A DNA stretch of 63,579 bases, filler included, from 4 parts of 4 records of this genome joined end to end with filler, not necessarily neighbours in it, one strand, 5' to 3'. Positions 8,650 to 43,394 are shown, counted from the whole stretch's first letter. The notes: generated by a model not told the origin, from the sequence alone. A program made the numbers and translations.

Positions 8650-8812
8650 TGTAAATTCTGTCACAGCGAACTTATTCGCCGTGTTCATGAAGCAATGTCT
8701 AATGAGTGCAGCGCAGCTAAAGCCAGAAAAATCGCAAAAAACAGCGCAAAAATGATGTAAAACCGTGACAGAAGATTGTGTGGTGCTTTGTCGGATTGTA
8801 AAAATTGTGACA
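8650..8812. promoter_or_regulatory. Three copies of TGTAAA-N3/4-GT(C/G)ACA upstream of aceA; putative operator sites
   Basis: TGTAAATTCTGTCACA (8650-8665), TGTAAAACCGTGACA (8756-8770), TGTAAAAATTGTGACA (8797-8812). Confidence 0.5.
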
Positions 8813-8860
8813 GGACATCTTTTCTTTCTGGTATGCGCAAGTCTCTTGTTACGCTATTAT

Positions 8861-20255: not shown

Positions 20256-20355
20256 NNNNNNNNNNNNNNNNNNNNNNNNNNNNNNNNNNNNNNNNNNNNT
20301 TAATTAATTAANNNNNNNNNNNNNNNNNNNNNNNNNNNNNNNNNNNNNNNNNNNN
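20256..20355. other. Artificial contig spacer (N44-TTAATTAATTAA-N44)
   Basis: Identical linker at all three gaps; gene content and composition change across it. Confidence 0.99.
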
Positions 20356-20383
20356 GTGTGTGTGCGTGCGTGCGTGTGTGTGT
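20356..20383. repeat. (GT)n/(GCGT)n microsatellite at contig start
   Basis: gtgtgtgtgcgtgcgtgcgtgtgtgtgt. Confidence 0.85.
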
Positions 20384-20413
20384 GATCATCACCGTGGTGG
20401 ATACGTTCCGGCA

Positions 20414-23400: not shown

Positions 23401-24390
23401 CAATTTTGCGGCGTGTACTCCTGTTTTCCAATCAGGCCTGACATTTTGCTTGTGTTTTGGGGCTGTACTTATCAAAGGTATAATGCTGATGCCAATGTTC
23501 CTCGCGAGACTGATGGGGCAACACCACTTTTCGTGGCTGCCCAACATAGCTACCAAGGGGTGGTGCGCGTGCTGCTTTCAACCGTGAACCCTGATGGTAT
23601 TGATGCTATGACGAACGCAGGCGCAACGCCCTTGTGGGTCGCTGCGCGAAACAACCACCGCGATTCTGCATCAATGTTGCTCAGCGCTAAAGCAAATCCA
23701 AACGCTGCTGACAATAGACGGCGCACCCCACTCCACCAAGCGGCTCGCGGGGATAATTTGGAGTGCATAAAGCTGCTCCTTCGACGCAAAGCTGACCTTG
23801 ATGCTTGTGCTGTTCCTCCACGAAATTTGACACCGCTGCTTGTTGCAGCCGATCGCGGTGCTGCCGCAGCAGTTGACTACTTATTGCGCGCGAAGGCTGA
23901 CCACTTGGCCCGGGATGGAAATGGGCGCACTGCATTAGAGTGTGCCAAAAAGCAAGGACATAAAAATGTCATTAGGATATTTGCGGAGTGGGATCTAGAA
24001 TTGCGCCGGCGCGAGTCTCTGCGTCCACGCCTTGTTGCAGGAGCAATGGATAGCGGAGGTGCAGAAGACAGTGCGCCCATCACACGCCGTGTTAGCGTTC
24101 GAAACAGTGCCCGTAATTTGATGGCACCCCTCGAAGAAGGCGATCACGAAGATGACGAGGATGATGGGTCGCACAAAGTCTGTAACGGCAGTTCATCCCC
24201 GGCAGTGTCCGTATCGGCACAATCATCCATGTCGCGTTTGACATTATCTCTGACCCCGTCAACTCGAATGGCGGTTGCAGGCAGCCGTGACCAACCCGCC
24301 GCATCGCATGGTCAGAGTGCTGATAAGTCCAACGCTACCCGCCCTCGCTCATCGCATGGGCGCATCCGTATCAGTCGTAGTCCGAAGTGA
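20414..24390 (+). CDS. Eukaryotic 4-exon gene (20414-22240, 22401-23078, 23195-23388, 23478-24390; 1203 aa): MGxxxS N-terminus, putative RelA/SpoT-like nucleotidyltransferase region, ankyrin repeats
   Basis: GT-AG introns of 160, 116 and 89 nt join the exons in frame (3612 nt total). Ankyrin motifs GATPLFVAA, GATPLWVAA, TPLHQAA, TPLLVAA and GRTALECA. Confidence 0.75.
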
Positions 24391-24589
24391 ATCCAATCGA
24401 CGGTCACTTGTCCGTGGGCGTGGTTTCATGCTCACTTCATTGTGCAGTTTCAATAAAAGGAGTAAGCTCAAAAACAACCAGTGGAGCAAGTTTGTTATCG
24501 TTTAGAAAAAAAAAAACATGGAAGTAAGTTAAGTATCAACACAGGAGTTGTTGACAAGTCTGAGCGAATAAATCCAGCTCAGCAAACTT

Positions 24590-27500: not shown

Positions 27501-30500
27501 TATCATCGCTATCGCCACGTGCTTCCTCAGCGCTATTCTCCTGCGCCGGGGAGCCGCCAGACTCCGCACTTGCACTGACATCTGTGTTTTGCTCGCTGGA
27601 AGTATTGCCGGTTGTCGCGGCCACAGCGCTCGTCATCTCTCCAGACTTGGTGACCCGCGCGAATTTGGAGCGGCCTGGTTGAAGTGTGATCAAGGTCGCT
27701 GGAAGAACTTGTTGGCCAGGATCGGCCTGCCAAAAAGATTTTGCTTTCTCGATTTCAGCCATGTGTTCTGCCGTTTCGTCTGGTTCTGCATCTACCCGGC
27801 GACCATTGACGAGAACGACCACCCGCGGACGCCCCGCACTTGCGGCTCTGGGTTGGCGCGGCGGTGCTGGGGCTTTGCGGTACGTTTTCCTTGAAGACGT
27901 GGCACCCATTTCTAAAGAAAGCATCTGCTTGTAGTACGGAACATCCGAAGTGGCTGCAAACTGTTCCAGACCGTTAGGCCTGGTCTCCATGTTCGGGCTT
28001 GCAAGGCTGCCAGTGGATGCGCCCGTCAATGACCCTGTGACAGCCATTTCAGGCTTTGAAGCAACGCGTTGCTGCTGTTCAGATGCTGCTTCTGCGGCTG
28101 CTGCGCGTCTTTCGGCGCCGGCTATTGCTTTTTTAGTTGCTTCATCTATTTCGTCGTCACCGTCCTCCTCACTTTCTCCAAGGAGTGGCACATGCCCGAC
28201 AAGGAAATTGCCGCCAACGTAACCCAGACCAGCAGTAAGGTCTTTCAGAACGGGTGCTTCGGTGGCGTCCGCATCAGCTTCGGATTCACTAACGTCACCG
28301 CTTTCCTCGCTATCACTTCCTGTTGTGTCTCCGTGGTTGCCGCCAGTGCTGTCGTCTGGCTGGTTGAGTGTGGCCAGGAGACTGGAGTCTCCAACTTCCC
28401 GGTAGAACTGGCGTTCCCTGCCAAAGGCCACGCCCTTGCTCTGCTCGTACACAAGCTCAAGTTGTTCTCTCTTATCTAAGCCAGCGGACAGACCTCCACC
28501 GTAAGATGAAAAAGTTGTGTTGTCGTCCTCATCCCCATCATCGGTCATGGAGCCTTTATCGTTCACTTCATTTTGACCAACACTGGCGGAGTTTGCATTC
28601 GTGCCCTTGTCTGCCTTGACCATGCTTCGTCCCACTGATTCAGGTGAATCAAGTGCATCCTCTGGCAACAAGCCTGCACCTTTTCGCTTTGCCCGAGTAG
28701 ACTTTGCTGCACGAGCTGCACTGCCAGTCCCACTGGAACCAACAGACAGTGTTAGTTGCTTTTGGGCCAGTGTCTCCTGCTCTTGAAGTTCTTTGAGCCG
28801 ATCGGCATTTGTGGGTTTTCGGTTAAGCATTTTGTTGAAGTGTTTTACCAACGACACTGCATGCGCTTCGAAGGCGGCGTGCCGCTTCTCAAGGAGTTCA
28901 ATTTCCCCAAGAGCTGCCGATGCTTGCTGTAAACGCATGTCGCCACATTGGCAGCGCTCACGCCACTCCGTGACCTCAGCGACACGCTGAGCAAAAACTC
29001 GCTTCGCTTCGTCCATGTCATCCAAGGTAGTCATCACAAATTGCTGCTGCTGCAGCACAGCTTGATCAAGTACTTCCCTGCTTGCTTGAAGAATTTTGGC
29101 AGATTTGACCAGCGTGTTGTCGTTCCTCACACGTCGCGCTTCAGCCTCAAGTAGCTCTTTTGTTGTATTTTCGAGTCTGAATCGCAAGCTTTTCACCGTC
29201 TTTTTCATTGCCTTCAGGGCATTCTCAGCTGCCACAATTTCTGGAGACCCCTTCGGGTTGGTGCAAGCAAGTTTGAGCTCCTTCACCTCGTCAGCCATGT
29301 CTTCGACAAGCAATGATTTGGCAAGATACCTAAACGCAGTTCAATTCAATATCCGCTGTTAGGAGACAATCAAAGCCACCAGCGGCACATCGAATCGGTA
29401 ACAAAGGAAAACAAAAACTGTCAAACCACGTACTCTCTTTGAGTACTTTCTTTGAGTTTCTGAAGGGCAGGAATATGGTCAACAAGATGCCCATTCGATG
29501 CTGCTGCGTCAGCAAGCCGTTTGGTGTGCATCACGATGGTTTTTTCGGTGCTGTGCTTGCGCGTTTTAAACGCAGCGTTCGCTTTGTGCAACTTGCTCGA
29601 CAACGCATCGACAGCAGCCTTCGCAGAGACTTCTCCGCTCTGCGCTCGACGCAACTCAGCTCGCAGTCGATTTACAAAGTCCACAGCTGCTGCTCGCGAA
29701 GCTCGCTGATCTTCTGCCTTCGGAGCAATCACAGACCTCCAATCGGTGTGATACTGTTGCCACTTGAGCCAGAAACGTAGCGACCCATGAAGATCAAACT
29801 GCTTAGCCTCACACTGCGGCTGGGCTGCAGGCACTGGCACCAGGCGCAACGCTTTAATGTACACGTCCACCACGCGGCTGTGGGTGCACCACCGACGCAC
29901 TGGAGGGCGAAAACATTCAGCATGCTCGCCCACGAGCGGCGTGAACCCATCGCCCGAGTCCGATTCTGCTGCATCAACGCCAGGTTTCTCGTCAAGACAA
30001 TCTGATTTCACGGTTGCCACGCCGGTGGGTGGCCCTCGGCTGCGGCGGATATGAATTGGAACGTACAGCTGGTCTTCTGTGATGTGATGCACTGTGAACG
30101 GCGAAAATCGGGCAAAACGTGTCAGGGCAACATGGGTATTTGCGAGTTTCTCCCCGGTTCCATCTTTGGTGGACTTTGGATCCCCCACACGTGATTTTTT
30201 GCTGTTCGACCTTTTGCCTGCAATGGGAACCGCAGTTTCGAGATCATCTAGTGTCGGCCGCACCTCGACGCCAACAACGGGATATGTATTCCGATGCTTG
30301 AACACTGTGAGATGGATTTGCTCTGCCGACAGTTGGCGCAGATCAACATTGTCATCGCCACTGCCGACCAATGGTTCCAGCTCGACAGGCCCACGCGCGA
30401 TTTCCGGAGCGACTGACGAACTTTCTGAAATGACCGACGAGGCGCCGGTGGCATCATCTTCGAGGTCGTCGTCATCGCTCGCACTGCCCGCGTTTCTAGC

Positions 30501-33500
30501 AGAGGCAGTGGAGACCGGGAGAGTGGACGGGCCCGTGCGTTCTCGAAAAGCAGTAATCGCCGTGCGGTACTCATACCGCTGCACAAGTGCGTCGTCGCGA
30601 GCATCTTGTCGAACCCTCGTGCGCAATACAACTGCGTTGCGCTTGTCGTGCCGCTGCCGAAGCAATCGCAGTACCTTCCGCTCTGACGATTTGCGTCCCG
30701 CAAATGATGGGGTACTGATGCGACCTCCAACAGCAGACGAGGGTCTCGACGACGAACGAGAGGCCAAGCCTGACCTCGAGCCATCCGCTTGCTGATCCAT
30801 GACCGTTGCCAAGAACCCTTTTGCTGCAGCGAGGCGCCCTAAGTACGACGATTCTGCTCGACGCGCCTCGGCAACGCCACGGCGAGTTTCATGAGCTTCA
30901 ATCTGGCGTTTGCTGTCCCAATCCACCAGCTTACCAGCACAGAATTCCCAAATGAGGTGGAAGCTGAATAGTGCCCATTTTTCGAGCATAGCGAGCCGAT
31001 ACTCACGCCTCTCGCTCTTCAAAAACTGTTGCATACTGACACGTCGCAAGTGAATGTCAAGCACTGTGTGGGCAGGTGTCCGATAGGCAGACGCGATCTC
31101 CAATGCCGATTGGTATTCATCCTCTTCTGCAACCTGAGCTGCATTCTCATCGTCGCTGTCAACATCCATGTTTGAGGTGCTCTCCTCTGACTTCGGGATT
31201 CGTGCTTTTGCCTTCAAGGGAGCCCCAGCTTCGAGGAGGCGATGCACACATTGGAAGTGAGCAAAGCTCGGCACTTGGGCAGCAAGAATAAGCGCCGTTG
31301 CCCCAGTTTTGTCCCGGAGGGTGGCCGGCTGACCATTGTTAATCAAACGCTGCACGTGGTCACAACGACCGCGACGGGCCGCGACCAGCAACCGCGGCCG
31401 TTCTGCGACAAGATGTGTTTGTAGTTCTGCGTACTCTGCTCCCTTGAGATCCTTCTTTCGCAGACACTGGAGCGGACTCAAGAAAGCAGCGGTTTCAGTC
31501 TGGGCCAATGCTTTCCCCTGACGCGCGCGCGCGTCCGGGGCAAGCATTGAACGATCAAGTGCAATTGTTTGTAGTGCCATCAGGTCTTTGCTGTCCAGCA
31601 CAGCTTCCTCGTTTTCGTACCTTTGAAGCATTAACATGAACCACAGCAAACCGAATGGTCAAAGCGTTGTTTCCCCACCACACGAAGCCAAGCAGAAAAG
31701 TGGTGCACCACACATAAATATATTTAGCCAATTCGTTTTCGCAAAACACGCTAACGCACTGGAGTTCGCGCATTGTGTGCGTAGCAAAGGTTTTTGACTG
31801 GGCAACAAGGTGCAGAAGTTGTCCTTTCAGCTCCATTGTTGTCACCAGCCGTTTTCGAGATTCTGCCGCGATCAGACGCCAAGCTTTGAAACACCGCCCG
31901 CACACGTTGCGAACCCTTGCTTTGAGATACGTAAATAAAAAACACTCCCAACGCTTGCGGCGCGCCACGACACTTCGCCACTCGCGCCACGCCTGCAACT
32001 GTGTAACTTTGGTGGAGTAGCCAAGCCAGACCCGCAGGGCCTGCTGCGCTGGCCTCGACCTGCGAGTCAACAATGATTACCCTGTTGCGTTAAACTGAGA
32101 CGGTACTTGCACAATGGCTCATGAACACATTTGGCTGACTTGTGTCGGACTTACCCTCGTGGCGCAAGAAGCTTGTGACGCCCATGTGCTCTAAGAACGC
32201 GCAATTCGCCAACCGTGAAGCGCAGTGCTGCCATGTGGACCTTAAGAATTTTTCTTTCGCGCCGACGCGTGAGTTTCCTGTGAATCGCACGGTGCAGTAC
32301 TTGCTGCCGGGCAATGCCTCGCCACTGGCGGACCACTTTGCGCAAAAACCGTCGGTCTTTCCCCTGAGAGCGCACGTAGTTGGACCAATGCCGAAGCACG
32401 AGTCTACAGTGGAACTGACGAGCCCTACTCTCGTTGACACGGTCAGCAACGCGCGCTCGGCAGAATGATTTCCATCGCCACAAAAACCGTCTGACAAAAT
32501 TGAATGCTCCCAGAACGGACGACCGATATGCCCTCAGCTTTCGTGCTTCGTGTGCACGCAACCATTTGTCCCAAGTCGCCCACGGTTTCTCAAAGCGCGG
32601 AAGCCCGGGTCGGTTCTCCCGCACGTGCTTTTTGAAAACAGAATAGCGATGCCACATTTGCACAATAATGCTGAGCCACTCGCCGATCCATATTTGAGAT
32701 CCTTGCTCTGCAGCAGGCAACATCTTATTGGCGTTTCTAATATGCGTGGCGAACTGGAGTCGGAGGCGATGCAACCGAATAGAAAACACTCGCCACAGCT
32801 TGAAGTACTTTTTCATGAGATGAACTCGAAGCTGATACCTGCATAGTCGTGAGCGGCAAGGATTAGTGGCGCGCGAAAGAGGGCCGAGTTGGCATCTTCA
32901 TAGCAACAAGCTCGATGATGCAAAACGCAGTCCATACTCACATGCCCAGCGCGCGACGTTGCTCTGCGTTTTTGCGAGCCTCTGCCGACCCTTCCATCTC
33001 ACCCATGCTTTCTGACGCCGTGCCAATTCCAAGCAATAACGCCATGTTCCCTGCCACCGTCTTTGATTCAGACACAGCATCAAACACGTTCTGTTGGGCC
33101 TTGTTCTTGTACTTTTTTCGATGCGCAAATTCGCGCCATTTGAGAAAGACTGCTCGGCCTTGAATTCGACGATTCATTCGGGCGGCCAAATACAACGCCT
33201 TAAAAGCCAAAAAATGCCTCGTGCGATTCGCTTTGCGGCGGGTCCGCCAACGCTGCAGTTTCGCGAAGGGTTTAGCCATACGATACCACGTTTGGATCTG
33301 CATTACGCCATCAGTCAACCTGAACTGTCGTCGGTAGCTGCGAGTCCACGCATTGATTTCTGCATCGTCATCAACCTCGCTTTCGGTCTCGAAGTTGTCA
33401 ACAGCGGGCGCCCTCCGCTGAGCATTGTTGCTTCTGGAAGGTACAGTCCGAGAACGAGCCGGCGCAGCTCCAGCACCGAAGCCGCCACCAATTCCAAGTC

Positions 33501-34173
33501 CGGCACCGCGACCATTCCCATCGCCTTTTGAAAATGATTGAGCAGACGTCGAACGATGGGAAGCGGCAGTTGACCGCCTGGACGCAGGAGATGACGGGAA
33601 TAGTGCATCCCCTGGGGCAGCAGACGCTTGGTTCGCTTCTGCCACAAAACGCTCTGCAGCCAAGACTCGCTCCTCGAGGTCTCCGAAGGCGCCTTGGATT
33701 GCATTCGTCTGCCCACGAATTGTACGCTGCGTCGGCGCAGTCTGATGAAGAACGACCCGGGTGAAATCGGGCGTCCCCAGCGAAGCGACAAAGTCGAACG
33801 GCTTGGGGGCAAAGTTGTTGCTCCGGGCCACCGTGCGCCGGTAGGCCCGTTCCTGCCTTTCCACTTCTTGTTGGAGCCCGCGCCCCACGAGTCGGCGCGG
33901 AACGTCCGTGGGTCTGCGCTGGAAACTGCGCTTGTCTATCGGGGACTTCACGACTCTCGACCCTTGGAACCACTCAGCCTTGCCCGGCACGCGCCCGCCA
34001 GGGGGTGGCTGCAGCAGCTTCTCTGTTCTTGCCTCCTTCAGAGTGCCTGCGACGCTGCCAGGCCCTTTGAGGGCGTCTCTCGTCGTCGGGACTGCGGGCT
34101 TTGGTTGAAGCCCGTACTTGTTCTCTCGCACCGACTTCTTGCGCTTCGACCGCGTCTTCTGCGATGAAGACAT
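24590..34173 (-). CDS. Eukaryotic 6-exon gene (34173-32942, 32838-32155, 32059-31760, 31620-29434, 29329-25048, 24871-24590; 2988 aa): IQ motif, Sfi1-like W repeats, ankyrin, coiled coil, long disordered tail
   Basis: Five GT-AG introns (donors GTGAGT, GTAAGT, GTGCGT, GTACGT, GTGAGG) join six ORF-track ORFs in frame (8967 nt total). IQTWYR motif, repeated F/LxxW motifs and a GATALILAA ankyrin motif. Confidence 0.75.
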
Positions 34174-34198
34174 TGTTGTTGTTGTTGTTGTTGTTGTT
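34174..34198. repeat. (GTT)n microsatellite at contig end
   Basis: tgttgttgttgttgttgttgttgtt immediately upstream of the minus-strand ATG. Confidence 0.9.
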
Positions 34199-34298
34199 NN
34201 NNNNNNNNNNNNNNNNNNNNNNNNNNNNNNNNNNNNNNNNNNTTAATTAATTAANNNNNNNNNNNNNNNNNNNNNNNNNNNNNNNNNNNNNNNNNNNN
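34199..34298. other. Artificial contig spacer
   Basis: N44-TTAATTAATTAA-N44. Confidence 0.99.
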
Positions 34299-34361
34299 CC
34301 CTTTGAAGGCGGTCCGACGTTTCGGGGGCGTGTGAAGGCTTGAGGGAAGGAGGGGGATGTT
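34299..34361 (-). repeat. REP-like element, family AACATCCCC...TTCAAAGGGGG, copy 1
   Basis: Its reverse complement aacatccccc...cccgaaacgtcggaccgccttcaaaggg matches copies at 38383-38433 and 39133-39212. Confidence 0.7.
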
Positions 34362-34491
34362 TCTACGCCCGAAGTACCATTCATCTATTTGAAATAGAAG
34401 GATAAGAAAGCGTAGCTACAACCTACGCTTAGGTTGGTTTAGTCATCCTCGTTACAAACGAGGACGAGATGAGGTTAAGTAAGTATATATG

Positions 34492-35373
34492 TTATCTAAA
34501 TATCGCCTTTTTATCAGTAATGTAAGATGGAGTTATATTTAATAATGCACGATCCTTTATATAGTAGCCATTTATAACGTAGACAAGATTAGAAAGTGTG
34601 ATTGGAAATTTAACTCCATCGTCAAAGATTTGATTAAGAAATTCATTTCTATCTACCCTAAGAATTTGTTTAATAAGGTTATCATCCGAGTTATTAATAA
34701 CCTTCATCAATGCGGGCTCAATTGGTTCATTGCTAACTCTTACTCTAAACTTGTTCCTCAACATAGCTGGAAGGTTTTTTGCCTTGTAGTGTTCATATGC
34801 CAGCTTGTCAAATAATGACAATATTGACCAATCGTTGGTCTCTAATGCTGCATACAATCCATTTAATGTTCTAGAGAGTTCTTGAAAATCTTCCCAATCC
34901 TCGCTGCATTTATATCTTAAGTCGTGTTCAATTTCATGCCATCCTTCTGATAGCATTGTTCGAATCTGTACTTCATAAGTGGTGTCTATATATCGATAAT
35001 CTCTAATTATTGTATCTGTAACCTCTTCCTGATAGTCTTTCTTAAGCCTAAAAATCAAATTGATTCTGTTTGGAGCAAATACTGTTTCTTCAGCCTCATC
35101 AATTGTTTCATCAACAAATTCAAATTTTGATTTTAGAGCTTTGTATACAAGAGGGATATCATCTTTGAAGTATAGAACAACTCTGATCCCAATTAGATCT
35201 TGCATCAACTTTCCATTGGAATCTAGGTGGTACTTTTTCCGCTCCAGTTTTCTTTTTAATGACTCCTCAGATTTCGCACGATCAAAAATTCTAAACAGTA
35301 ATCCAATTCTTTCCAGCTCTGATTCAATTTCAGACGAAATACCTCTCGCAATTCTGTCTAACCCAGCATTCAT
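34492..35373 (-). CDS. RelA/SpoT-family (small alarmone synthetase-like) nucleotidyltransferase with a helical C-terminal extension
   Basis: RAKSEESLKRK, QDLIGIRVV and YEVQIRTMLSEGWHEIEHDLRYK synthetase motifs; no HD hydrolase domain. Confidence 0.9.
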   Translation of the reverse strand: MNAGLDRIARGISSEIESELERIGLLFRIFDRAKSEESLKRKLERKKYHLDSNGKLMQDLIGIRVVLYFKDDIPLVYKALKSKFEFVDETIDEAEETVFAPNRINLIFRLKKDYQEEVTDTIIRDYRYIDTTYEVQIRTMLSEGWHEIEHDLRYKCSEDWEDFQELSRTLNGLYAALETNDWSILSLFDKLAYEHYKAKNLPAMLRNKFRVRVSNEPIEPALMKVINNSDDNLIKQILRVDRNEFLNQIFDDGVKFPITLSNLVYVINGYYIKDRALLNITPSYITDKKAIFR

Positions 35374-37487
35374 TACTTAATTCTTTTTTTAACTTCCTCA
35401 AGCTTATTCATACTTAAATGAACATCCATGCCATTAACTACTAAATACCCATTCTTGGCTAGGTTTTGAATCTCATTTTGAACTGTTTTTCGTTTTGCCT
35501 TATCATACTCTTTAATAAGGTGCAATAATTTTTGCGTTCTATGTTTACTTTCTAGTTCATAGATTTTTTTGAGGATTTCATTTTGAAAGATTTCATCAGC
35601 AGTGTATTCTTCTTCTAGGAAATGTCTTGAATTATAATAGAAAATATTGCAATCGGTTTCAGTACAGGAAATTGATGAGTTCTCGGTCTTATAGTCTAGA
35701 TAATCACCTCCAATAACTTCACACGAGTCAAAATGACATTGAATAAATGTAGAGCCTTTAAATGCTGAGATTTGAAATTTACACTTCTTGAATTTGCAGC
35801 TAATAAATACGGTAGAGTCTATTGTGCAACTTTCATCAAAGAAGACTTGGTAAGCTTGAATCGAAGTTACGGTGGTACTTTTTATGGGCCGAAGCAACTT
35901 TCCTCTCAATGTGACGTCAAAGTTGAAAAGTACATTTGTAGGAAATTTATGCTTTAGCAACTCTACTTTATCCCAAAGCAGCTTCTTATTGGCACTATTC
36001 TGAACCCTGAACGCAGTAGCTCCTAGCTCTACCATATAAGCAGAGAAATTCTTTTCAATTTCTTGAGGGCTTGTTTCACACATTATCTCCCCAATGAAAT
36101 TTCCAAATACAAAGTCATTTATAAAACCAACTTGATTTTCTTCTCTTCCTTTTCTGTCCAGAATTGCATGGTTTATTAATTTATCACTTATGGTATCGAT
36201 TGATGGACTACCAGGGTAAGCTTTTAGTGCTTTTTCTAAGATTTTGCGATTTTCGTCTTCTATAACATCGCGCATAAATTGTCTTTTTTCAGATGATAGG
36301 TCAAACTGAATAAGCATTTTTACCACGTTTTTGAAAATCTGGTATTGATCATATGGATCGATGTAAAGCTCTTGGCGTGCTTTTTCTCTCTCCATTAATG
36401 AGAAAAAGTATTTTTGGACAATTAGGTCGGGCTCTAGTAAGTGGTTATTAAAATCGTCTTTTGTGAGATTTCTTAAATAGGTTAATAATACAGGGTTTGC
36501 TATTTGATCTATTGGGATATTTTTTTCTTTAACCTCATTTACTCTTTCTTTTCCTAGCCAATCTTTGATCCTAGGTATTTCAATTGTAAATCGGTTTACT
36601 TGAAAGGCGTTTTTCCATCTTTTAAACCAATCCCTAAATTCAGATCCTCCAAAAATCGCCGTTTTTCTTGTTGTTAGTATTAGTTTGGCTTTTCCCGTTA
36701 GCATCTTACCAATTGTATCAAGCATGGGTTCAACTTCACCAAATACTTCATGCTCCTGGTCAGACACTAAATCAGATTTGTGTAACAATTCATCAAAGCC
36801 ATCTATTATTAGAGGAATCCTGCCACTTTGAATTTCATGCTTAACGAGTTTTGAATCTAAATTTGGATATTCACGATCTATTTCATCCAATAGGATATAT
36901 CTGAAAATATTAGCTCCTCGATTTCTTGACAGCTCTGTCATTATTGGATTGCCACAATCACCATTATTAGTTAGGCTATTTAATATTTCATAAGAAGTAC
37001 AAGTTTTACCATATCCAGCGGCAGCTTCTATAATTATTAGTTGAGGTGATGATGACCTGAGATATCTCCTTATTTCAGTAATTATATCAGTTGAGGGGTT
37101 CTCATTATTAATTTGATATTGTGAGTTAATGTATTTGTAGGGCGTACCACCGTTTAATTTGGTTTGATTCTTTGAAAAAAGCTTGTACTTAGATTTTAAT
37201 CTTTTTAATGTGGATTGGTATGCAAAAAAGCTTTTATATAGCTCATCAGCAGCTTCATCAATATTATTTATTTTTCTTATTTGAACGGCATAACCACCAT
37301 CTGCATACTCTTTCCTTATTTTCTCAATTTCAGACTCTGTCTCAGAGTTATTTTTAATAGGGATTATATCAACACCGAAATAGCGACCTTCTTCATACAA
37401 ATAAACACGCAGGTTGTCATTAGTCGCTTTTTTCTTGTATCCGTATTTTGAGTAAACATTATCTAATTCAGATATATTAATTGGCAT
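35373..37487 (-). CDS. STAND/NACHT-type P-loop NTPase with pentapeptide-like repeats and a possible C-terminal winged helix
   Basis: Walker A IIIEAAAGYGKT, Walker B LIIDGFDE, LILTTR sensor and NPVLL motif; STVFISCKFKKCKF...STFIQCHFDSC repeats. Stop overlaps the next start (TAATG). Confidence 0.85.
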   Translation of the reverse strand: MPINISELDNVYSKYGYKKKATNDNLRVYLYEEGRYFGVDIIPIKNNSETESEIEKIRKEYADGGYAVQIRKINNIDEAADELYKSFFAYQSTLKRLKSKYKLFSKNQTKLNGGTPYKYINSQYQINNENPSTDIITEIRRYLRSSSPQLIIIEAAAGYGKTCTSYEILNSLTNNGDCGNPIMTELSRNRGANIFRYILLDEIDREYPNLDSKLVKHEIQSGRIPLIIDGFDELLHKSDLVSDQEHEVFGEVEPMLDTIGKMLTGKAKLILTTRKTAIFGGSEFRDWFKRWKNAFQVNRFTIEIPRIKDWLGKERVNEVKEKNIPIDQIANPVLLTYLRNLTKDDFNNHLLEPDLIVQKYFFSLMEREKARQELYIDPYDQYQIFKNVVKMLIQFDLSSEKRQFMRDVIEDENRKILEKALKAYPGSPSIDTISDKLINHAILDRKGREENQVGFINDFVFGNFIGEIMCETSPQEIEKNFSAYMVELGATAFRVQNSANKKLLWDKVELLKHKFPTNVLFNFDVTLRGKLLRPIKSTTVTSIQAYQVFFDESCTIDSTVFISCKFKKCKFQISAFKGSTFIQCHFDSCEVIGGDYLDYKTENSSISCTETDCNIFYYNSRHFLEEEYTADEIFQNEILKKIYELESKHRTQKLLHLIKEYDKAKRKTVQNEIQNLAKNGYLVVNGMDVHLSMNKLEEVKKRIK

Positions 37488-37618
37488 AACGGTGATTAAA
37501 GGAGTGGAAAATGTTATCTCGTTAAGTTAAATATTATTAGAACAAGAAAAAATATTCATTGAATGGTTGATATTTCACTCCCTCTAGCACAAGCGGACGC
37601 TTGTGCTTTCATCTATGA

Positions 37619-37648
37619 AGATACCGCATCGTGGTGCGGTATGACAGA
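37619..37648. repeat. REP-like palindrome AGATACCGCATC..GTGCGGTATGACAGA (second copy at 39458-39486)
   Basis: Near-identical hairpin copies at 37619 and 39458. Confidence 0.75.
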
Positions 37649-37705
37649 TAAATGGTGTCATGCCCTCCTTAGAAATAGCATTCTACACTATGTTTGAGAT
37701 GAGAT

Positions 37706-38281
37706 ATGAAAAAAATAGTTGTTCTCCTTCTCGGTCTTTTAGTGCTTTTCTTTCTCGTAGAGAGGGTCTACAGGTTTGTTGAGTCCGACAAATGTCTTGA
37801 TAGGGGAGGAAGCTGGAACTACGCAAAGGACACTTGTGATTATGGACTTAACGTAAAGTATGAGGGTTATTGGATTACAGATTTTAAATCGCTATTTGAT
37901 ACATCTTCAATTGAAGAGAGTTTTGAGCTTGAACCGACCATTCGATATACCATAGAAACGGATAGTGGTTCATATGATCACATATACAAGGGGGACACGC
38001 TGATCGATATTCGCTTATCGAATGAAATTGACCTAATGGAATTTAGGTTTACTGATGATATTAAAGGAGTTCTAAATTACTTTTCCTGGGATTCAACAAC
38101 GAATATTTCTATTACTGAACCCAGTATTGTTTTCTACTCGTCTCGTTTTGAGTTCTTGGCATATGATAAAGTAAGATTGATGGATGATCAGGAATTCTCG
38201 GATACCTTAGATATTAGATCATTAAAGCCTGATGTAATAAAAATTGGAATGGATACACTTTATAGATTTAATATTCAATAA
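37706..38281 (+). CDS. Hypothetical membrane-anchored or exported protein
   Basis: N-terminal hydrophobic segment; CLDRGGSWNY...C motif. Confidence 0.65.
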   Translation: MKKIVVLLLGLLVLFFLVERVYRFVESDKCLDRGGSWNYAKDTCDYGLNVKYEGYWITDFKSLFDTSSIEESFELEPTIRYTIETDSGSYDHIYKGDTLIDIRLSNEIDLMEFRFTDDIKGVLNYFSWDSTTNISITEPSIVFYSSRFEFLAYDKVRLMDDQEFSDTLDIRSLKPDVIKIGMDTLYRFNIQ

Positions 38282-38382
38282 CCTTCACTAGGGCAAGCGT
38301 CCGCTTGTGCTTTATTATAACTTAAAATCAATGCACCTCCCTCTCCAGCCTTCGTTGGTGTTGTTACCAACGAACGTGCAAT

Positions 38383-38433
38383 AACATCCCCCTGCTCTCG
38401 CTCAATCCCGACGCACCCCCCTTCAAAGGGGGA
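38383..38433 (+). repeat. REP-like element, copy 2
   Basis: aacatccccctg...ccccccttcaaaggggga. Confidence 0.7.
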
Positions 38434-38606
38434 ATTAGTTCTTAAAAGGAGAATAACTTCTGAGATCAAGGCACTTCCCTTAGCGATTTAGACGATCCTG
38501 CAGGTTGGGCTTTTGGCGTACTTCCGCTACTTTTAATGCTACGGTGGGTACACAGTCGGATAGATTGGCTTGTGCCTCATCAATCATACCTAAACGACTG
38601 CATGCA

Positions 38607-39023
38607 ATGAGCGAATTACCTTTTGAATACTGGAATAAACTCTCCAATCATTTCATTCTAATATCTGTGTTTCTTGGTGGTTTTTCCATCGCATTAACGG
38701 CCAACCTACTGATCAATAAATCGAATGATCGACTTCAGAATACTATTTTGAAATTGGCTACTACTTCATCCGGAGGCTTCCTCACGGCTGTTTTTGGCAT
38801 GACAAATATCTTGATGGTAACCACACAGGGCTACCCTGTTGAGGTGACTCAAGATGATTTAAATATGCCCAGGTTCATTGGGTTCCTGGGATATTTGGTT
38901 GGTGTTCTATCGCTGTTCACCATTATCGGATTGTCTGGCTGGACAAAGTCCAGGGGAACAGGAATTTTCACAACGGTCGTTAGCGTAATTACATTGATCC
39001 TCTTTATCATTTTAGTTTCTTAG
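38607..39023 (+). CDS. Hypothetical small multi-pass membrane protein (about 4 TM segments)
   Basis: ATG 38607 gives MSELPFEYW; four hydrophobic stretches. Confidence 0.7.
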   Translation: MSELPFEYWNKLSNHFILISVFLGGFSIALTANLLINKSNDRLQNTILKLATTSSGGFLTAVFGMTNILMVTTQGYPVEVTQDDLNMPRFIGFLGYLVGVLSLFTIIGLSGWTKSRGTGIFTTVVSVITLILFIILVS

Positions 39024-39132
39024 TCGGGATAGATGCTGAAACAAGTGCGGGCGGCTAGTCTCAGCATGACTTAATATTCTTTGTTTGGTGCGAATAATGT
39101 AAGAAAGTCACCCTGAATTTATTTCAGGGTCG

Positions 39133-39212
39133 AACATCCCCAGCTTTCGCTCTGGCCGACACACCCTCGAATCGTCGAACCGCCCGAAGCGTCGGACCGT
39201 TTCAAAGGGGGA
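39133..39212 (+). repeat. REP-like element, copy 3
   Basis: aacatcccc...cgaagcgtcggaccgtttcaaaggggga. Confidence 0.7.
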
Positions 39213-39492
39213 TTGGATCAAGGCGGATTGCTTTGCGATTTAGACGGGACAGAAGCCGACACAACGTAAGGCGGATGGCGCGAATATCAGTGGAGGTGGA
39301 ATGGAGGGTGGTCTCTGCTGGATTTAGAGAGATGGTGCCAATTCCATTGTGGATTACGTCGTTGACTGGATTAACTGACTGTCATGCCGTTCTCCGAAAC
39401 GGCATCTTCCATAACTAAAGCGGAAGATTCAGTATTGCTATTACATGCTATAGTGGAAGATACCGCATCAAGTGCGGTATGACAGATTAGGG

Positions 39493-40584
39493 TTACAAAA
39501 CCTCCTCCAATGCCTGGATGCACATTTGGTTTTCTTCGGGGCGGCCGACGGAGATGCGGATGCAGTGGCTGATGGGGTCGTAGAGTGGGCGTACGAGCAC
39601 GCCGCGTTCCATGAGCGCATTGAAGATCTTCATCACTTCGTCTTTGTCCTTCCAGACGGTCATCACAAAGTTGGCGTAGGAGGGGACGTAGCGGATGCCG
39701 AGCCGGTCGAATTCCTTGTAGAGGTACTTGAGCTGCTGGGTGTTGTTGTCGATGGATTTTTTGAGGAAGGCGGTATCCTGTAGCGCGCCAATGCCGGCGG
39801 CCTGTGCCAGTGCGGTGGGCTCAAAGGTGAGCTTTACCTTGTTGAGCGCATCGATGATCTTTTCATGTCCGATTCCGAATCCGAGTCGTACGCCGGCGAT
39901 CCCGTAGGCTTTACTGAAGGTGCGCAGCGTCAGGATGTTTGGGTAGTCCATCTCGAGGGAATTGGGGAAGTCGGGGAGCAGCGCCTCGGAGTATTCGAAG
40001 TAGGCTTCATCCACGATCACGAGGATATGGTCGGGGACGTGCTGCATAAAGCTGTCGAGCTCCTGCTGGGTGATCATGGTGCCGGTCGGGTTGTTGACGT
40101 TGGCGAGGTAGATCACTTTGGTGTTCCGGTTGATCCGGCTTTTGATGGCTTCCAGGTCGAAGGCGTAGTTGTCGGTCATCGGCATGGCGACACACCGCAC
40201 ATTGTTGATGCGGGCCCAGTTGTAGATGATCACAAAGCCTCCTTCGGAGGTGAGGAACTCATCGTCTCCGGTGCACATCGCGCGGATGGCGTGCATGAGC
40301 ACGGACTCTGAGCCATTGCCCATGAAAATTTGGTTTTCTGACTTGCCGTATCGTTTGGCCAGGGCAGCTTTCAGGTCACGGGAGACCGGGTCGGGGTAGT
40401 AGTTGATGGATTCATACGCATCGATCACCGCCTGCTTGGACTTGGGCGAGTAGCCGAGCGTGTTTTCGTTGTTCCAGAGGATGGCGACCTTTTCCCAGCC
40501 ATATTCTTCCTTTAGCTGTGGGATGGTCTTGCCTGGCTGGTAGCTTTTGATTGCTGCGATGTGGTCAGGTATTTGTACGTTCAT
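39493..40584 (-). CDS. hisC: HisC/Pat-family PLP aminotransferase
   Basis: NEN, YYPDP, GNGSE, NNPTG, VDEAYFEY and LRTFSKAYGIAGVRLG motifs. Confidence 0.85.
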   Translation of the reverse strand: MNVQIPDHIAAIKSYQPGKTIPQLKEEYGWEKVAILWNNENTLGYSPKSKQAVIDAYESINYYPDPVSRDLKAALAKRYGKSENQIFMGNGSESVLMHAIRAMCTGDDEFLTSEGGFVIIYNWARINNVRCVAMPMTDNYAFDLEAIKSRINRNTKVIYLANVNNPTGTMITQQELDSFMQHVPDHILVIVDEAYFEYSEALLPDFPNSLEMDYPNILTLRTFSKAYGIAGVRLGFGIGHEKIIDALNKVKLTFEPTALAQAAGIGALQDTAFLKKSIDNNTQQLKYLYKEFDRLGIRYVPSYANFVMTVWKDKDEVMKIFNALMERGVLVRPLYDPISHCIRISVGRPEENQMCIQALEEVL

Positions 40585-40626
40585 TGGTTGCGAGTGAATA
40601 CTACGTGTGACTTAATATAAACAGTT

Positions 40627-41043
40627 TTATTCTTCAATCTCCCACCGCTCTTCTTTTCTAAAAACCACTCCTTTAAACAGTCCAACGAGCTCATTGTTTC
40701 GTGTAACGCGCACAATGTATTGGCCCAGGCTTTTGGAGATGCTTTCCTTTTCAGCAGTGGCGATCAGCTCATCACCCTCGAAAATCGGTTTGATGTGATT
40801 GATCGACGTTTCAATGGAAACCGCTTTTTGTCCGTGGGAGTTCGAGGCAAATGCAAAAGCAGAATCAGCCAATGAAAAAGAGATGCCTCCATGCGCCACG
40901 CGGTGACCGTTGAGCATTTCTTCCCGTACGGTCATCTTAATTTGGGCATAGCCTTCCCGCACTTCGAGCACGTCTACTCCCAGCCATTGACTGAAGGAGT
41001 CGTTGGCCATCATTTGGGACACTATGTCATTCGCTTTGCTCAT
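40627..41043 (-). CDS. paaI: Hydroxyphenylacetyl-CoA thioesterase (hotdog fold)
   Basis: NGHRVAHGGISFSLADSAFAFASNS motif; paa gene context. Confidence 0.9.
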   Translation of the reverse strand: MSKANDIVSQMMANDSFSQWLGVDVLEVREGYAQIKMTVREEMLNGHRVAHGGISFSLADSAFAFASNSHGQKAVSIETSINHIKPIFEGDELIATAEKESISKSLGQYIVRVTRNNELVGLFKGVVFRKEERWEIEE

Positions 41044-41051
41044 TCCTTGTT

Positions 41052-41093
41052 TGGTTACTAGTTGCTAGTTGCTAGTTGCTGGTCACTAGTCAA
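41052..41093. repeat. Tandem 7-bp repeats (TAGTTGC-like)
   Basis: tggttac tagttgc tagttgc tagttgc tggtcac tagtcaa. Confidence 0.7.
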
Positions 41094-41201
41094 CTAATTT
41101 ACTAATCATCCATTTAGATTTGGTCATTTTTTTGTTGTCTGCTTCGAGGGCCTCAGCATGACAACAGTGGGAGTGTCACCCTGAGGTTCTCGAAGGGTGT
41201 A

Positions 41202-42359
41202 TCAATAAAACGTTTTCCCCTCCTCTTTCATTCTTCGCAACAGCGGGCTGCAACGGTAGCGGTCTTCTCGGTACTCGTCGTACAGGGCTTCCATTTTCTC
41301 CACGCACCAGTCGATTCCTTTTTCATCGGCCCACTTCAGCAATCCTTTCGGGTAATTCACTCCTTTGGTCATGGCCGTATCAATGTCTTCCCGGCTGGCG
41401 ATGTTCAGGAACAGTGCATCTGCCGCTTCGTTGATGAGCATGGCTAGGGTGCGATCGAGAATGGCTTGCCCTAATTTCTCGTCCTTTTTCGGTTCCGGTT
41501 TCTCAGCTCCCTCTGCATAATCGTAATACCCTCGATCTGATTTACGCCCCAGGAATCCGGCTTCCGACATACGTTTCTGCGTGAAGGACGGTCGGTAGCG
41601 TGGATCGTAGAAGAACGATGCAAAAACCGTTTCCGTTACCGTATAGTTAATGTCGTTTCCGATGAAGTCCATCAGCTCGAATGGTCCCATGCGGAAGCCG
41701 CCCAGCTCTTTCATCGCCCAGTCGATCGTGGCGAAATCGGCTATGCCTTCTTCGTACATGCGCAGCGATTCTCCGTAAAATGGTCGGGCCACCCTGTTCA
41801 CAATGAAGCCCGGCGTGTCTTTGGCCAGCACGGTCAGTTTCTTCCAGCTGTCGACCCAGTCTTTGGCTTGTTGGGTGGTGGCCTCTACCGTTTGTACAGC
41901 AGGGATGATTTCTACCAGGGGCATCAAGGGAGCGGGATTGAAAAAGTGAATGCCCACAAATCTGGACGGGTCTTTCAGTGCCGATCCGATGGAGGCCAGC
42001 GAAAGCGAGCTGGTATTGGACGCAATGATGGTGTCTTCGCGTACAATCTCTTCGACGGCTTTAAATACTTTTTGCTTGATCTCCAGGTTTTCAACGATCG
42101 CCTCGATCACCAAATCAGAGTTTTCGAAGTACTGCTGGTCTTCTGTGAAGTCGATCCGTCCGAGGATTTTGTCTGCCGTTTCCTGATCGATCTTTTCTTT
42201 TTCCACCAGTCGGTTCATCACCTTGACCAGGCTGGCAGATGATTTCTCAAGAATGTCACTGTTGGTATCGTTGATCACCACATCCCATCCGGCTGTGGCG
42301 GCTACCTGCGCTATGCCGGTTCCCATGGTTCCAGCTCCTATCACACTTAATTTTGGCAT
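41202..42359 (-). CDS. paaH: 3-hydroxyacyl-CoA (3-hydroxyadipyl-CoA) dehydrogenase
   Basis: GAGTMGTGIA, EAIVENL, SNTSS, HFFNP and PGFIVNR motifs; lies between paaG and paaI. Confidence 0.88.
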   Translation of the reverse strand: MPKLSVIGAGTMGTGIAQVAATAGWDVVINDTNSDILEKSSASLVKVMNRLVEKEKIDQETADKILGRIDFTEDQQYFENSDLVIEAIVENLEIKQKVFKAVEEIVREDTIIASNTSSLSLASIGSALKDPSRFVGIHFFNPAPLMPLVEIIPAVQTVEATTQQAKDWVDSWKKLTVLAKDTPGFIVNRVARPFYGESLRMYEEGIADFATIDWAMKELGGFRMGPFELMDFIGNDINYTVTETVFASFFYDPRYRPSFTQKRMSEAGFLGRKSDRGYYDYAEGAEKPEPKKDEKLGQAILDRTLAMLINEAADALFLNIASREDIDTAMTKGVNYPKGLLKWADEKGIDWCVEKMEALYDEYREDRYRCSPLLRRMKEEGKTFY

Positions 42360-43138
42360 TACTCTCCTTTAAATTCAGGTTTTCGTTTCTTGATGAAGGC
42401 TTGCACGCCTTCTTTGTAATCGTATGTTTCGGTGGCTTTGAACTGCCACTCTTTTTCCAGTTCCAGCTGCTGGTTCAGGTCATTGGTGAATGACTGATTC
42501 AACAGGTGCTTCGTATAGGCCAGTCCTTTGGTTGGCATGTTGGCGAGGGTCTGAGCGATCTTTTCGGCTTCTTCTGCAAAGGAATCATCAGGGAATACCT
42601 TGTAGATCATGCCCATCTTTTCAGCATCCGTTGCGGATACTTTGTCGCCCAGCATCATCAATGCAGAGGCTTTGCCAAACCCGATAATTCGAGGCAGGGT
42701 AAATGTCCCTCCACTGTCAGGCACCAATCCGATTTTGCTGAATGCCTGAATGAAGGCTGAGGACGCTGTAGCTACACATACGTCACAGGCCAGTGCGATA
42801 TTGGCACCTGCACCCGCAGCGACTCCATTCACCGCGGCGATGATCGGTTTCTCAATCGTTCGAATCTGCTTGATGATCGGGTTGTAGTGCTCGTCTACAA
42901 TCTGCTCGATCTCCAGTCCATTGTCGGCGATGGCTTCCTGCAGGTCCTGTCCGGCACAGAATGCTTTGCCATTTCCGGTAAGCATAATCGCTCGCACGGA
43001 ATCATCTTTAGCAAAATCATCCAATGCTTTTTGGACGGCCATAGCCAGCTCTTTATTGAAGCTATTGAAGACATCAGGACGGTTGAACGTCAGGATGCCG
43101 AGGGTGTCTTTTTTGGTTATTTGAAGGGTGTCTGACAT
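42359..43138 (-). CDS. paaG: Ring-1,2-epoxyphenylacetyl-CoA isomerase (crotonase family)
   Basis: FCAGQDL, AAGAGANIALACD and FIQAFSKIGLVPDSGG motifs. Confidence 0.88.
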   Translation of the reverse strand: MSDTLQITKKDTLGILTFNRPDVFNSFNKELAMAVQKALDDFAKDDSVRAIMLTGNGKAFCAGQDLQEAIADNGLEIEQIVDEHYNPIIKQIRTIEKPIIAAVNGVAAGAGANIALACDVCVATASSAFIQAFSKIGLVPDSGGTFTLPRIIGFGKASALMMLGDKVSATDAEKMGMIYKVFPDDSFAEEAEKIAQTLANMPTKGLAYTKHLLNQSFTNDLNQQLELEKEWQFKATETYDYKEGVQAFIKKRKPEFKGE

Positions 43139-43294
43139 GTGGGTAATGTTTGTGTTGGCGAAGTTAAAAGATTTGTGGTTTTTGCCTTAGGCCGGCAGGC
43201 CCCTACTTTTTCTTGATAAAAAGTAGGCAAAAATCAAGGCTGATTCAGAAATGACTAAAAATGTCTCATTACGCCTAAAATCCTCGAAACTCGC

Positions 43295-43394
43295 NNNNNN
43301 NNNNNNNNNNNNNNNNNNNNNNNNNNNNNNNNNNNNNNTTAATTAATTAANNNNNNNNNNNNNNNNNNNNNNNNNNNNNNNNNNNNNNNNNNNN
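43295..43394. other. Artificial contig spacer
   Basis: N44-TTAATTAATTAA-N44. Confidence 0.99.

Follow-up and report, generated by a model that had tools for sequence, protein, structure and literature searches.

What is the function of the two overlapping genes, one for a NACHT-type NTPase and one for a RelA/SpoT-type synthetase, that lie at positions 34492-37487 of the DNA analysed here? The original prediction, made from the sequence of the window alone (by the window we mean the whole stretch of 63,579 nucleotides), saw in this pair a sensor similar to the NLRs (nucleotide-binding receptors with leucine-rich repeats) that controls a separately encoded synthetase, and proposed it as a candidate new anti-phage system. 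We consider the pair to be, probably, a self-contained and horizontally mobile two-gene conflict module of the bacterial NLR type, the most likely role of which is defence against phages. The coupling of an NLR-like sensor to a separate synthetase has stood up, in that the two genes are conserved together, match no system in PADLOC and are modelled as binding partners; the novelty of the arrangement is smaller than had been claimed.

Both open reading frames (ORFs) are exactly where they had been placed. The genes and the parts of their products are the following (aa, amino acids; AF2, AlphaFold2):

35373-37487, minus strand: gene for a 704-aa NACHT-type NTPase of the STAND class (signal transduction ATPases that have numerous domains), the putative sensor and switch (from the ORF, Pfam, homologues, AF2 and Foldseek)
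37107-37487, minus strand: NA-iREase2 domain, residues 1-127, an inactive restriction-endonuclease (REase) fold and predicted docking site of the synthetase (PF22723; predicted interface 20-66)
36573-37046, minus strand: NACHT nucleotide-binding domain, residues 148-305 (Walker A GYGKT, Walker B IIDGFDE, sensor-1 TTR)
35898-36572, minus strand: NACHT module, helical and winged-helix part, residues 306-530 (AF2 helices; NPVLL)
35643-35897, minus strand: short pentapeptide-type beta-helix, residues 531-615, a candidate sensor surface (Phe/Cys ladder)
35376-35642, minus strand: variable linker and C-terminal winged-helix-like domain, residues 616-704 (AF2; no Pfam family)
34492-35373, minus strand: gene for a 293-aa RelA/SpoT-type small synthetase, the predicted effector (start overlaps the NTPase stop; PF04607)
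34894-35298, minus strand: catalytic core of the synthetase, residues 26-160 (invariant residues in 64 of 64 sequences)
34495-34893, minus strand: all-helical C-terminal domain of the synthetase, residues 161-293, predicted to dock on the NTPase (AF2; interface)

Do the two genes belong together? At their junction, AAG-TAATG-AAT, the TAA stop codon of the NTPase gene and the ATG start codon of the synthetase gene share one A, which is the 1-nt overlap that had been described. A scan of one genome per species returned at least 122 relatives of the NTPase, a lower bound because the scan relied on exact matches to two peptide patterns. Of the best 80 loci, which were taken further, 76 have a synthetase homologue immediately downstream and on the same strand. 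In 75 of these 76, the stop codon and the first start codon are separated by -65 to +14 nt, the commonest values being +2, -4 and -1. The four loci without a synthetase include three contig ends (L017, L032 and L036), where the sequence stops at, or no more than about 250 nt past, the NTPase gene. Among viral contigs in IMG/VR there were 11 matches: seven are relatives of the family (34-38% identity), each of them paired with a synthetase, and the other four are weak matches to other STAND proteins. NTPase relatives are also present in six plasmid records (from Pantoea, Yersinia and Klebsiella), and the pair is kept in both of the two copies examined, in which the first gene carries the annotation 'NACHT domain-containing protein' or 'hypothetical protein' and the second that of a 'RelA/SpoT domain-containing protein'; both lie among recombinase and insertion sequence genes. 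Conservation of the pair had been named as a check of the prediction, and it is found in the genomic loci, the viral contigs and the plasmids alike.

For 73 complete pairs, the pairwise divergences of the NTPases and of the synthetases are correlated with r = 0.92, the maximum in 999 permutations being 0.09. Relatedness alone can give some of this correlation; taken together with the transfers across lineages described below, it shows that both genes move together. Adjacency by chance is rejected by this correlation and by the frequency of the pairing. No third gene of at least 80 aa recurs across the 80 loci.

Next, we asked what kind of protein the NTPase is. Its N-terminus (residues 7-127) matches the whole profile (1-119 of 119) of NA-iREase2, PF22723, "NACHT-associated inactive restriction endonuclease 2" (81.7 bits, E = 7e-23; the cut-off is 27). 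In 50 relatives, eleven positions of residues 1-127 are invariant or near-invariant (Y12, Y15, G16, G65, L83, F87, F88, Y101, F104, Y117 and Y119); these are aromatic residues, Gly or Leu, and none is Asp, Glu or Lys, which agrees with the 'inactive' nuclease of the family name. The four motifs quoted in the original prediction are all present (AAAGYGKT at 155-162, LIIDGFDE at 226-233, TTR at 272-274 and NPVLL at 331-335). Invariant across 50 sequences, in relatives down to 31% identity, are G160, K161 and T162 of the Walker A motif AAAGYGKT, D229, G230, F231, D232, E233 and L234 of the Walker B motif LIIDGFDEL (226-234), R274 of the sensor-1 TTR, and further P332, L335 and H440. NACHT domains carry extra acidic residues after the Walker B motif (hhhhDGxDE). 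The Pfam NACHT profile PF05729 reaches 18.4 bits on the 704-aa protein, under its cut-off of 26.7, and several family members (e.g. P0028 and P0045) have precomputed matches to it. H440 may be the winged-helix histidine of the NLRs, the position of which is named by Kibby et al. (preprint) as H443 in NLRC4.

The C-terminal half had been described as carrying pentapeptide-like repeats and possibly a winged helix. The repeats are seen as a Phe with a period of five (FISCK FKKCK FQISA FKGST FIQCH FDSCE), with F561 and F566 invariant and C564, C584 and C589 near-invariant in 50 relatives, and as short strands at 539-611 in the AF2 model; the Pentapeptide_4 profile stays below its cut-off (19.2 bits against 38). 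In this model, which has a predicted local distance difference test (pLDDT) of 86 and a predicted template modelling (pTM) score of 0.67, an alpha/beta N-terminal domain is followed by the P-loop domain, helical and winged-helix parts, the short strands and a C-terminal helix-helix-helix-hairpin-helix unit, the topology of which is indeed winged-helix-like. A Foldseek search of the PDB has NLRP7, NOD2, NLRP2, NLRP14, NLRC4 and NLRP3 as its top matches (E from 1e-9 to 1e-7), with Avs4 in 33rd place; the template modelling (TM) scores are low (0.2-0.33) because multi-domain models differ in overall pose. Mean column entropy is 1.41 in the P-loop domain, the most conserved part, 2.47 in the beta-helix, 2.92 in residues 616-650 and 2.63 in the C-terminal unit. 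Such a variable C-terminus is the pattern that would be expected if it meets a changing ligand. At least 1861 homologues were found at E <= 0.001 among 7999 scored candidates, and the best 120 of them are all 697-723 aa long and all carry PF22723. With so many homologues, in several phyla and on enterobacterial plasmids, tractable versions of the family exist.

The second protein matches RelA_SpoT, PF04607, over residues 32-158 (63.2 bits, E = 3.4e-17; the cut-off is 27). It had been called a synthetase-only protein, and rightly, in that no other Pfam family reaches its cut-off (PF23757 has 13.8 bits against 27) and there is no HD hydrolase domain. It is not a RelQ orthologue, since its score for the NCBIfam family YjbM (43.1 bits) is far under the equivalog cut-off of 320. 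All of 64 synthetase sequences share R32, K34 and K42 (ATP-binding), D59, R64, D72, E134, Q136 and R138, as well as the helix EGWHExEHxxRYK, in which E143-E147, H150 and R153-K155 are invariant in the 64 sequences and the x positions vary. Judged by these residues, the protein should be a catalytically intact RelA/SpoT pyrophosphokinase, and both members of the pair have intact active sites. With the family profile, RelQ and RelP chains are matched at E values between 1.8e-13 and 2.2e-10 and long Rel is matched at 8e-4, whereas CapRel chains are absent from the matches at E <= 1. The AF2 model (pLDDT 92) has small alarmone synthetases (SAS) of the RelQ and RelP type as its best PDB folds (E about 6e-7), and the match to CapRel (7ztb_B) is weak, with E = 2e-3, TM 0.38 and a root-mean-square deviation of 11.4. 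The GYRSYH of RelQ-type enzymes aligns with an invariant F99-x-P101-x-R103-x-N105 in this family, in a loop where the alignment may be shifted.

The C-terminal domain of the synthetase was searched for in 1.84 billion representative proteins, with 235 matches. In the best 150 of these it always stands behind an N-terminus of synthetase length, or the protein is a fragment. We had considered that this domain could be an adaptor shared with other effectors, and rejected the idea, as the domain is private to the synthetase family among the best 150 of the 235 matches. The whole synthetase module is also found away from any NACHT partner, in 15 longer proteins of 597-1052 aa in which it is fused to unfamiliar extensions. 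In P0121-P0134 (597-687 aa) the part fused to it is about 300 aa long and belongs to no known family, and 322 member sequences make up one cluster of such proteins; for this extension of the 597-aa fusions there was no Pfam match and no usable match in the Atlas. A structure search of the Atlas returned an 817-aa cluster with NUDIX and RelA_SpoT (TM 0.87 over synthetase residues 2-286). A fusion of NACHT and synthetase was not seen: seven of the 15 longer relatives were scanned and had no Pfam NACHT match, and the 1052-aa relative has no similarity to the NTPase. One enzyme module on different partners is what is expected of an effector cassette.

Do the two proteins bind to each other? Modelling of the complex had been suggested as a check, and the modelled docking, with its controls, speaks for direct binding. 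The predicted complex scored 0.61 in all three runs, the best of three controls scoring 0.01; in a calibration, 51 of 78 solved complexes and 2 of 108 mismatched pairs came up to this mark. At least 89% of the contacts are common to the three runs, and the pLDDT of the partner is at least 81. On the NTPase, the modelled interface consists of residues 20-66, within the inactive-nuclease domain, and 194-209; on the synthetase it consists of residues 3-24, 117-121, 212-219, 255-262 and 282-287. The NTPase side is somewhat more conserved than the rest of its domain (entropy 1.74 vs 2.21), with G65, Y66 and Y61 largely kept. On the synthetase side P257, T259, N262 and R212 are largely kept.

How could such a pair work? 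According to the model, the synthetase would be held on the NTPase by its C-terminal domain and N-terminal helix, which are predicted to dock on the inactive-nuclease domain, so that this domain would be an adaptor that recruits an effector. If the pair behaves like NLRs, bNACHT and Avs proteins, the variable C-terminal part could sense a trigger, upon which the NACHT module would open or oligomerise in an NTP-dependent manner. The bound synthetase would then be switched on and would use ATP to pyrophosphorylate an acceptor, which might be a purine nucleotide, the product then being (pp)pGpp or (pp)pApp, or else the 3' end of tRNA. This activity may arrest growth and abort the infection, if the precedents of NLRs, bNACHT, toxic SAS enzymes (toxSAS) and PANGU apply. 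Sensing, activation, toxicity, phage protection and the product of the enzyme are thus all proposed by analogy with other systems.

A more specific version of this mechanism is tempting, and we put it forward only tentatively. Here an NLR would recruit a separate executioner: a dead REase fold would serve as an adaptor that docks a private helical domain of a RelA/SpoT enzyme, and oligomerisation of the NACHT module would activate it. The pair would be a prokaryotic counterpart of adaptor recruitment in the inflammasome and an unfused, ancestor-like form of the fungal RelA_SpoT-NLRs, and the Phe-x-Pro-x-Arg-x-Asn loop may mean that its product or target is unlike those of known toxSAS. What sets the pair apart would be two features, the effector supplied in trans and docked, in the models, on an inactive-nuclease adaptor, and an acceptor loop that looks unusual in the alignments. 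If confirmed, this would be a new wiring of NLRs, in which an enzyme effector in trans is held by an inactive-nuclease adaptor. If true, it would also tie NLR-type immunity to toxins that make alarmones or pyrophosphorylate tRNA, two fields that have so far met only in fungal domain fusions, and it raises the question of what RelA_SpoT domains do as effectors of NLRs.

We wanted to know how the pair is distributed. The 80 loci are mostly from Bacteroidota; further sources are Bacillota, Beta- and Gammaproteobacteria, delta-type lineages and Ignavibacteriota, as well as one Deinococcales and one cyanobacterial bin; some of the placements in other phyla may be binning errors of metagenome-assembled genomes (MAGs). 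In a FastTree phylogeny of the NTPases the orders of Bacteroidota are intermixed, and near-identical sequences are found in different orders (for example, Cyclobacteriaceae, Saprospiraceae, Chitinophagaceae, Marinilabiliales and Bacteroidales stand together with branch lengths below 0.1). PF22723 is present in one of 401 genomes sampled evenly across the phylum and in one of the 41 nearest relatives, in both cases the genome of locus L001, the complete chromosome of an Ekhidna sp. MAG. Copies are also carried by conjugative and mobilizable plasmids, beside recombinase and insertion sequence (IS) genes. A megablast search of complete E. coli genomes with the pair of the Klebsiella plasmid gave no match, more distant copies not having been sought there. 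On one conjugative plasmid, an IncF plasmid of Klebsiella pneumoniae (L083, 3610-6593), the pair has an integrase on one side and an IS3 transposase on the other, and a gene with the annotation pifC is a few kb away.

The locus in the window has the marks of an accessory island as well. It was said to be more AT-rich than the paa genes of its contig, and the difference is clear: 33.2% GC in the pair and 50.8% in 39200-43200, where genes for an aminotransferase, a thioesterase and a 3-hydroxyacyl-CoA dehydrogenase lie. A chimeric contig as the cause of this step is rejected by the identical junction in the complete chromosome behind L001. Compared with that chromosome, the pair and its short flanks show 98.4% identity over 3143 nt, and the housekeeping genes on either side 86.8-94.9%. 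The segment 37609-38464 of the window, which contains a 191-aa ORF (37706-38281), is missing from the otherwise collinear L001. Downstream of the synthetase, L001 has an IS3-type transposase (rve domains) and then ORFs without a family; this insertion is not present in the window, where the sequence passes directly into a repeat that is found beyond the IS in L001. Foreign composition, conservation above that of the surrounding genes and a gene content that varies at one site are, taken together, the signature of an accessory island.

What surrounds the pair elsewhere? We grouped the ORFs flanking it into single-linkage clusters with BLASTP (E <= 1e-8, coverage of at least 50%) and annotated one representative of each. 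The recurrent clusters, with the number of the 80 loci in which they occur, are:

type I HsdM/HsdS cluster: 15 loci
ResIII-type helicase or restriction subunit cluster: 8 loci
integrase clusters: 6 loci
HsdR cluster: 4 loci
Schlafen-AlbA/HATPase_c_4 cluster: 4 loci
AbiEi and AbiEii clusters: 3 loci each

Immediate neighbours were scanned in 137 of 140 cases, three having been dropped as lying off the end of the locus or being longer than 1200 aa. Among them PADLOC recognises nine MTase_I and eight Specificity_I, and Pfam eight Methylase_S, six N6_Mtase, four HATPase_c_4, three HSDR_N, three AAA_21 and two AbiEii. As far as gene content can tell, the context of the pair is therefore both mobile and defence-like. 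In four loci (L031, L032, L037 and L047, at about 3400-9050) the pair follows a fused hsdM-hsdS gene after 5-66 nt, with a gene for a ResIII-type subunit also preceding it, as if it were embedded in a type I restriction-modification operon.

Several observations weigh against the idea of an anti-phage NLR with a synthetase effector. At L005, where the downstream sequence is ample, there is a 723-aa NTPase (6001-8172) with a divergent C-terminal tail and no synthetase in the following 5.9 kb; it is the only locus of this kind and may be a decayed or rearranged copy. The winged-helix-like domain modelled at the C-terminus of the NTPase would also suit a transcription regulator. The complex was predicted without alignments, and since 7 of 44 blind neighbouring pairs pass in the calibration, its score is support and not proof; furthermore, the interface on the synthetase is more variable than the remainder of the protein (entropy 2.44 vs 1.95). 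The column of the G-loop tyrosine is variable in the synthetase family, the invariant F99 lying three residues upstream. This tyrosine stacks on the acceptor (Y155 in CapRel and Y129 in Pag1B, according to bioRxiv 10.64898/2026.04.06.716658), and as the alignment places no tyrosine opposite it in this family, the chemistry cannot be assumed and the acceptor cannot be read from the sequence. The majority of the immediate neighbours match no defence family, and the neighbourhood counts, having no background set, are a description and not a measured enrichment in defence islands. Finally, a tblastn search of the GenBank phage collection with the NTPase gave no match.

Which other explanations could account for the pair? 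It might be a toxin-antitoxin (TA) or addiction module that stabilises mobile elements, with the synthetase as a toxSAS and the NTPase as a type II antitoxin that senses no phage. The layout of the pair, with the antitoxin first in an overlapping bicistron, is the one which in the main text of Jimmy et al. predicts toxSAS TA pairs, and direct binding is predicted here; the plasmid copies, moreover, lie beside replication, recombinase and IS genes. However, an ATP-dependent multi-domain protein of 704 aa, of NLR type and with invariant Walker motifs, far exceeds what neutralisation of a toxin needs. Its C-terminal part is also the most variable, as expected of a sensor, and it is restriction-modification and Abi genes that recur in the neighbourhood. 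We regard a pure TA module as rather unlikely, and TA and defence roles are in any case not mutually exclusive.

A second alternative reverses the order of events, so that the synthetase is the upstream signal generator and makes a nucleotide that the NTPase, or an effector encoded elsewhere in the host, reads before it executes the response. RelA-type domains are 'nucleotide-signal-generating' according to Kaur et al. and Kibby et al., and the occurrence of the synthetase module without NACHT, in the 15 proteins of 597-1052 aa and in the NUDIX-bearing 817-aa cluster, hints at a soluble nucleotide product. On the other hand, the NTPase has no recognisable executioner domain, its nuclease fold being without conserved acidic residues or Lys, and no third gene is conserved with the pair. 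To our knowledge, the STAND protein is the upstream component in all characterised NLR-type systems. We therefore find this order of events improbable. Improbable, too, is a housekeeping-type stress signalling in which the STAND protein is a MalT/AfsR-like transcription regulator and the synthetase makes physiological, non-toxic (p)ppGpp: the winged-helix-like C-terminal topology, the non-toxic RelQ and RelP as nearest solved relatives and the listing of winged helix-turn-helix domains among NACHT 'adaptors' in the preprint of Kibby et al. would fit it, but the distribution is sporadic (PF22723 in none of the 400 other sampled genomes of the phylum and none of the 40 other relatives), the signs of transfer are several (foreign GC, 98.4% identity vs 87-95% in the flanks, a tree that mixes orders), the pair occurs on plasmids and in predicted proviral contigs, and no target operon is conserved nearby.

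Returning to the NLR-type conflict module, we asked how much of it is new. The original prediction did not recognise the pair as a named system, and a comparison with PADLOC-DB v2.0.0, including its bNACHT/NLR-like and AVAST models, agrees: no named system is matched. The best matches are CARF3 (E = 0.0065) and Cas3e (0.069) for the NTPase and, for the synthetase, PDC-S33 (3e-5), over the 78 residues 12-89 only. We found no description of a NACHT plus RelA/SpoT operon in the literature searched, with the limit that the supplementary tables of Kibby et al., Jimmy 2020 and a STAND survey may list it; the text of the survey (a 2026 preprint) is without the words 'alarmone', 'ppGpp' and 'pentapeptide' and the main text of Jimmy 2020 without 'NACHT', 'ATPase' and 'NTPase'. 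So the operon as such seems new as far as the accessible texts go, and its components are less so, given PF22723 in Pfam, the effector list of Kibby et al., the fungal fusions and the precedent of PANGU. The architecture of the NTPase has already been catalogued, as the Pfam name 'NACHT-associated inactive REase 2' implies. Alarmone synthetases are named among bacterial NACHT effector domains in the Supplementary Discussion of the preprint by Kibby et al., and the legend of its Figure 2 includes REase domains marked as inactive and pentapeptide repeats. RelA domains are also among the effectors of other conflict systems (Kaur et al.).

The bNACHT proteins, as described in that preprint, resemble the NTPase in having a central NACHT with intact Walker motifs, an effector on the N-terminal side and C-terminal, superstructure-forming repeats of the pentapeptide type, which Kibby et al. 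list as sensors. They differ from the present pair in that the enzyme here is not fused but encoded by a separate, translationally coupled gene, and in that the N-terminal slot is taken by an inactive nuclease fold, predicted to be a docking adaptor. In PANGU type I, the sensor Pag1A binds the C-terminal domain of the toxSAS Pag1B and thereby switches on pppGpp synthesis, with abortive infection through alarmone synthesis and NTP depletion as the outcome (bioRxiv 10.64898/2026.04.06.716658). Like our pair, it consists of two genes, with a separate sensor and a toxSAS with an N-terminal synthetase domain. However, Pag1A is described there as a small nucleoid-associated protein, whereas the partner here is a NACHT NTPase of 704 aa; the C-terminal domain of Pag1B is an acidic DNA mimic, and here it is a private helical domain. 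Pag1B (GRel) also keeps the G-loop tyrosine, where our family has the invariant Phe-x-Pro-x-Arg-x-Asn, a comparison made with the description of Pag1B.

Conserved bicistronic SAS operons predict toxic SAS enzymes, according to the main text of Jimmy 2020. With toxSAS and CapRel, the synthetase shares its small RelA/SpoT-type core, a conserved overlapping bicistron (76 of 80 loci), a C-terminal extension and a context of defence genes and mobile elements. Unlike in these systems, the partner is an NLR-type NTPase of 704 aa and not a small antitoxin or hydrolase. CapRel itself (7ztb/9erv) is distant (E = 2e-3, TM 0.38, no profile match at E <= 1, in contrast to 1e-13 to 1e-10 for RelQ/RelP), and the C-terminal domain is found only in the synthetase family among the best 150 of 235 matches. 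In fungi, RelA_SpoT is an N-terminal effector domain of NLRs (Dyrka 2014). Both there and here RelA_SpoT is combined with NACHT and the synthetase has the position of the effector; the fungal proteins are, however, single fused polypeptides with WD40 or unknown sensors, and no inactive-nuclease adaptor is reported for them in the accessible part of that paper.

Some features of the window around the pair should be mentioned. The window consists of four contigs with artificial joins, the linkers N44-TTAATTAATTAA-N44 being at 20256-20355, 34199-34298 and 43295-43394, so genes on opposite sides of a linker are not genomic neighbours. The argument that the original prediction drew from the genomic context is flawed in so far as it was built on this concatenation. 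The pair is on the contig 34299-43294 (about 9 kb), the end of which is reached 193 nt past the synthetase stop. The window thus does not contain the downstream context, and the statement that no HD hydrolase or small antitoxin lies beside the pair could not be decided from it alone; in the 80 loci no third gene of at least 80 aa recurs, ORFs below 60 aa not having been compared. The further elements of this contig are:

34299-34361, no strand: inverted repeat, left copy, 75-79% complementary to 39133-39210; brackets the AT-rich island
39133-39210, no strand: inverted repeat, right copy, pairing with 34299-34361; the same element is in L001 at 4311-4427, 5466-5514 and 5734-5830
34408-34430, minus strand: terminator-like hairpin, 8-bp stem and then a T-rich tail, just past the synthetase (consensus match only)
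37488-37705, no strand: upstream intergenic region, shared with a divergent ORF (no Rfam match; no promoter-like excess)

Terminator-like sites number 9 in the region, against 3.3 +/- 1.9 in shuffled sequences. Promoter-like sites show no excess (18 against 17.0 +/- 3.9 in shuffles), and an Rfam scan of the 9-kb contig returned nothing at E <= 0.1. Two small AT-rich ORFs adjoin the pair, the one of 191 aa mentioned above and one of 172 aa (38505-39023); both look hydrophobic by eye, and neither has a Pfam, NCBIfam or PADLOC family above cut-off. On a different contig, the GC-rich ORFs at 20356-34198 are uninformative about the locus of the pair. With a GC content of about 55%, that contig carries ORFs of great length (1427, 742, 635 and 411 aa), which are of low complexity and have ankyrin repeats or no Pfam family at all; it is unlike the Bacteroidota-type contigs beside it and may be mis-binned or derived from a eukaryote.

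The pair had also been described as bounded by REP-like (repetitive extragenic palindromic) repeats, which is partly the case: copies of an inverted repeat do bracket the AT-rich stretch, the repeats themselves being only in part as described. A repeat of about 100 nt has several copies round the island, at 39119-39316 and 34299-34409 in the window and at 4311-4427, 5466-5514, 5734-5830 and 11302-11413 in L001, and looks REP-like or similar to a miniature inverted-repeat transposable element. The copy at 34299-34409 matches the repeat located beyond the IS element of L001 with 86.7%, and its position at the end of the contig may explain why the assembly breaks there. In addition, a perfect 18-nt hairpin unit occurs twice, at 37586-37603 and at 38294-38311.

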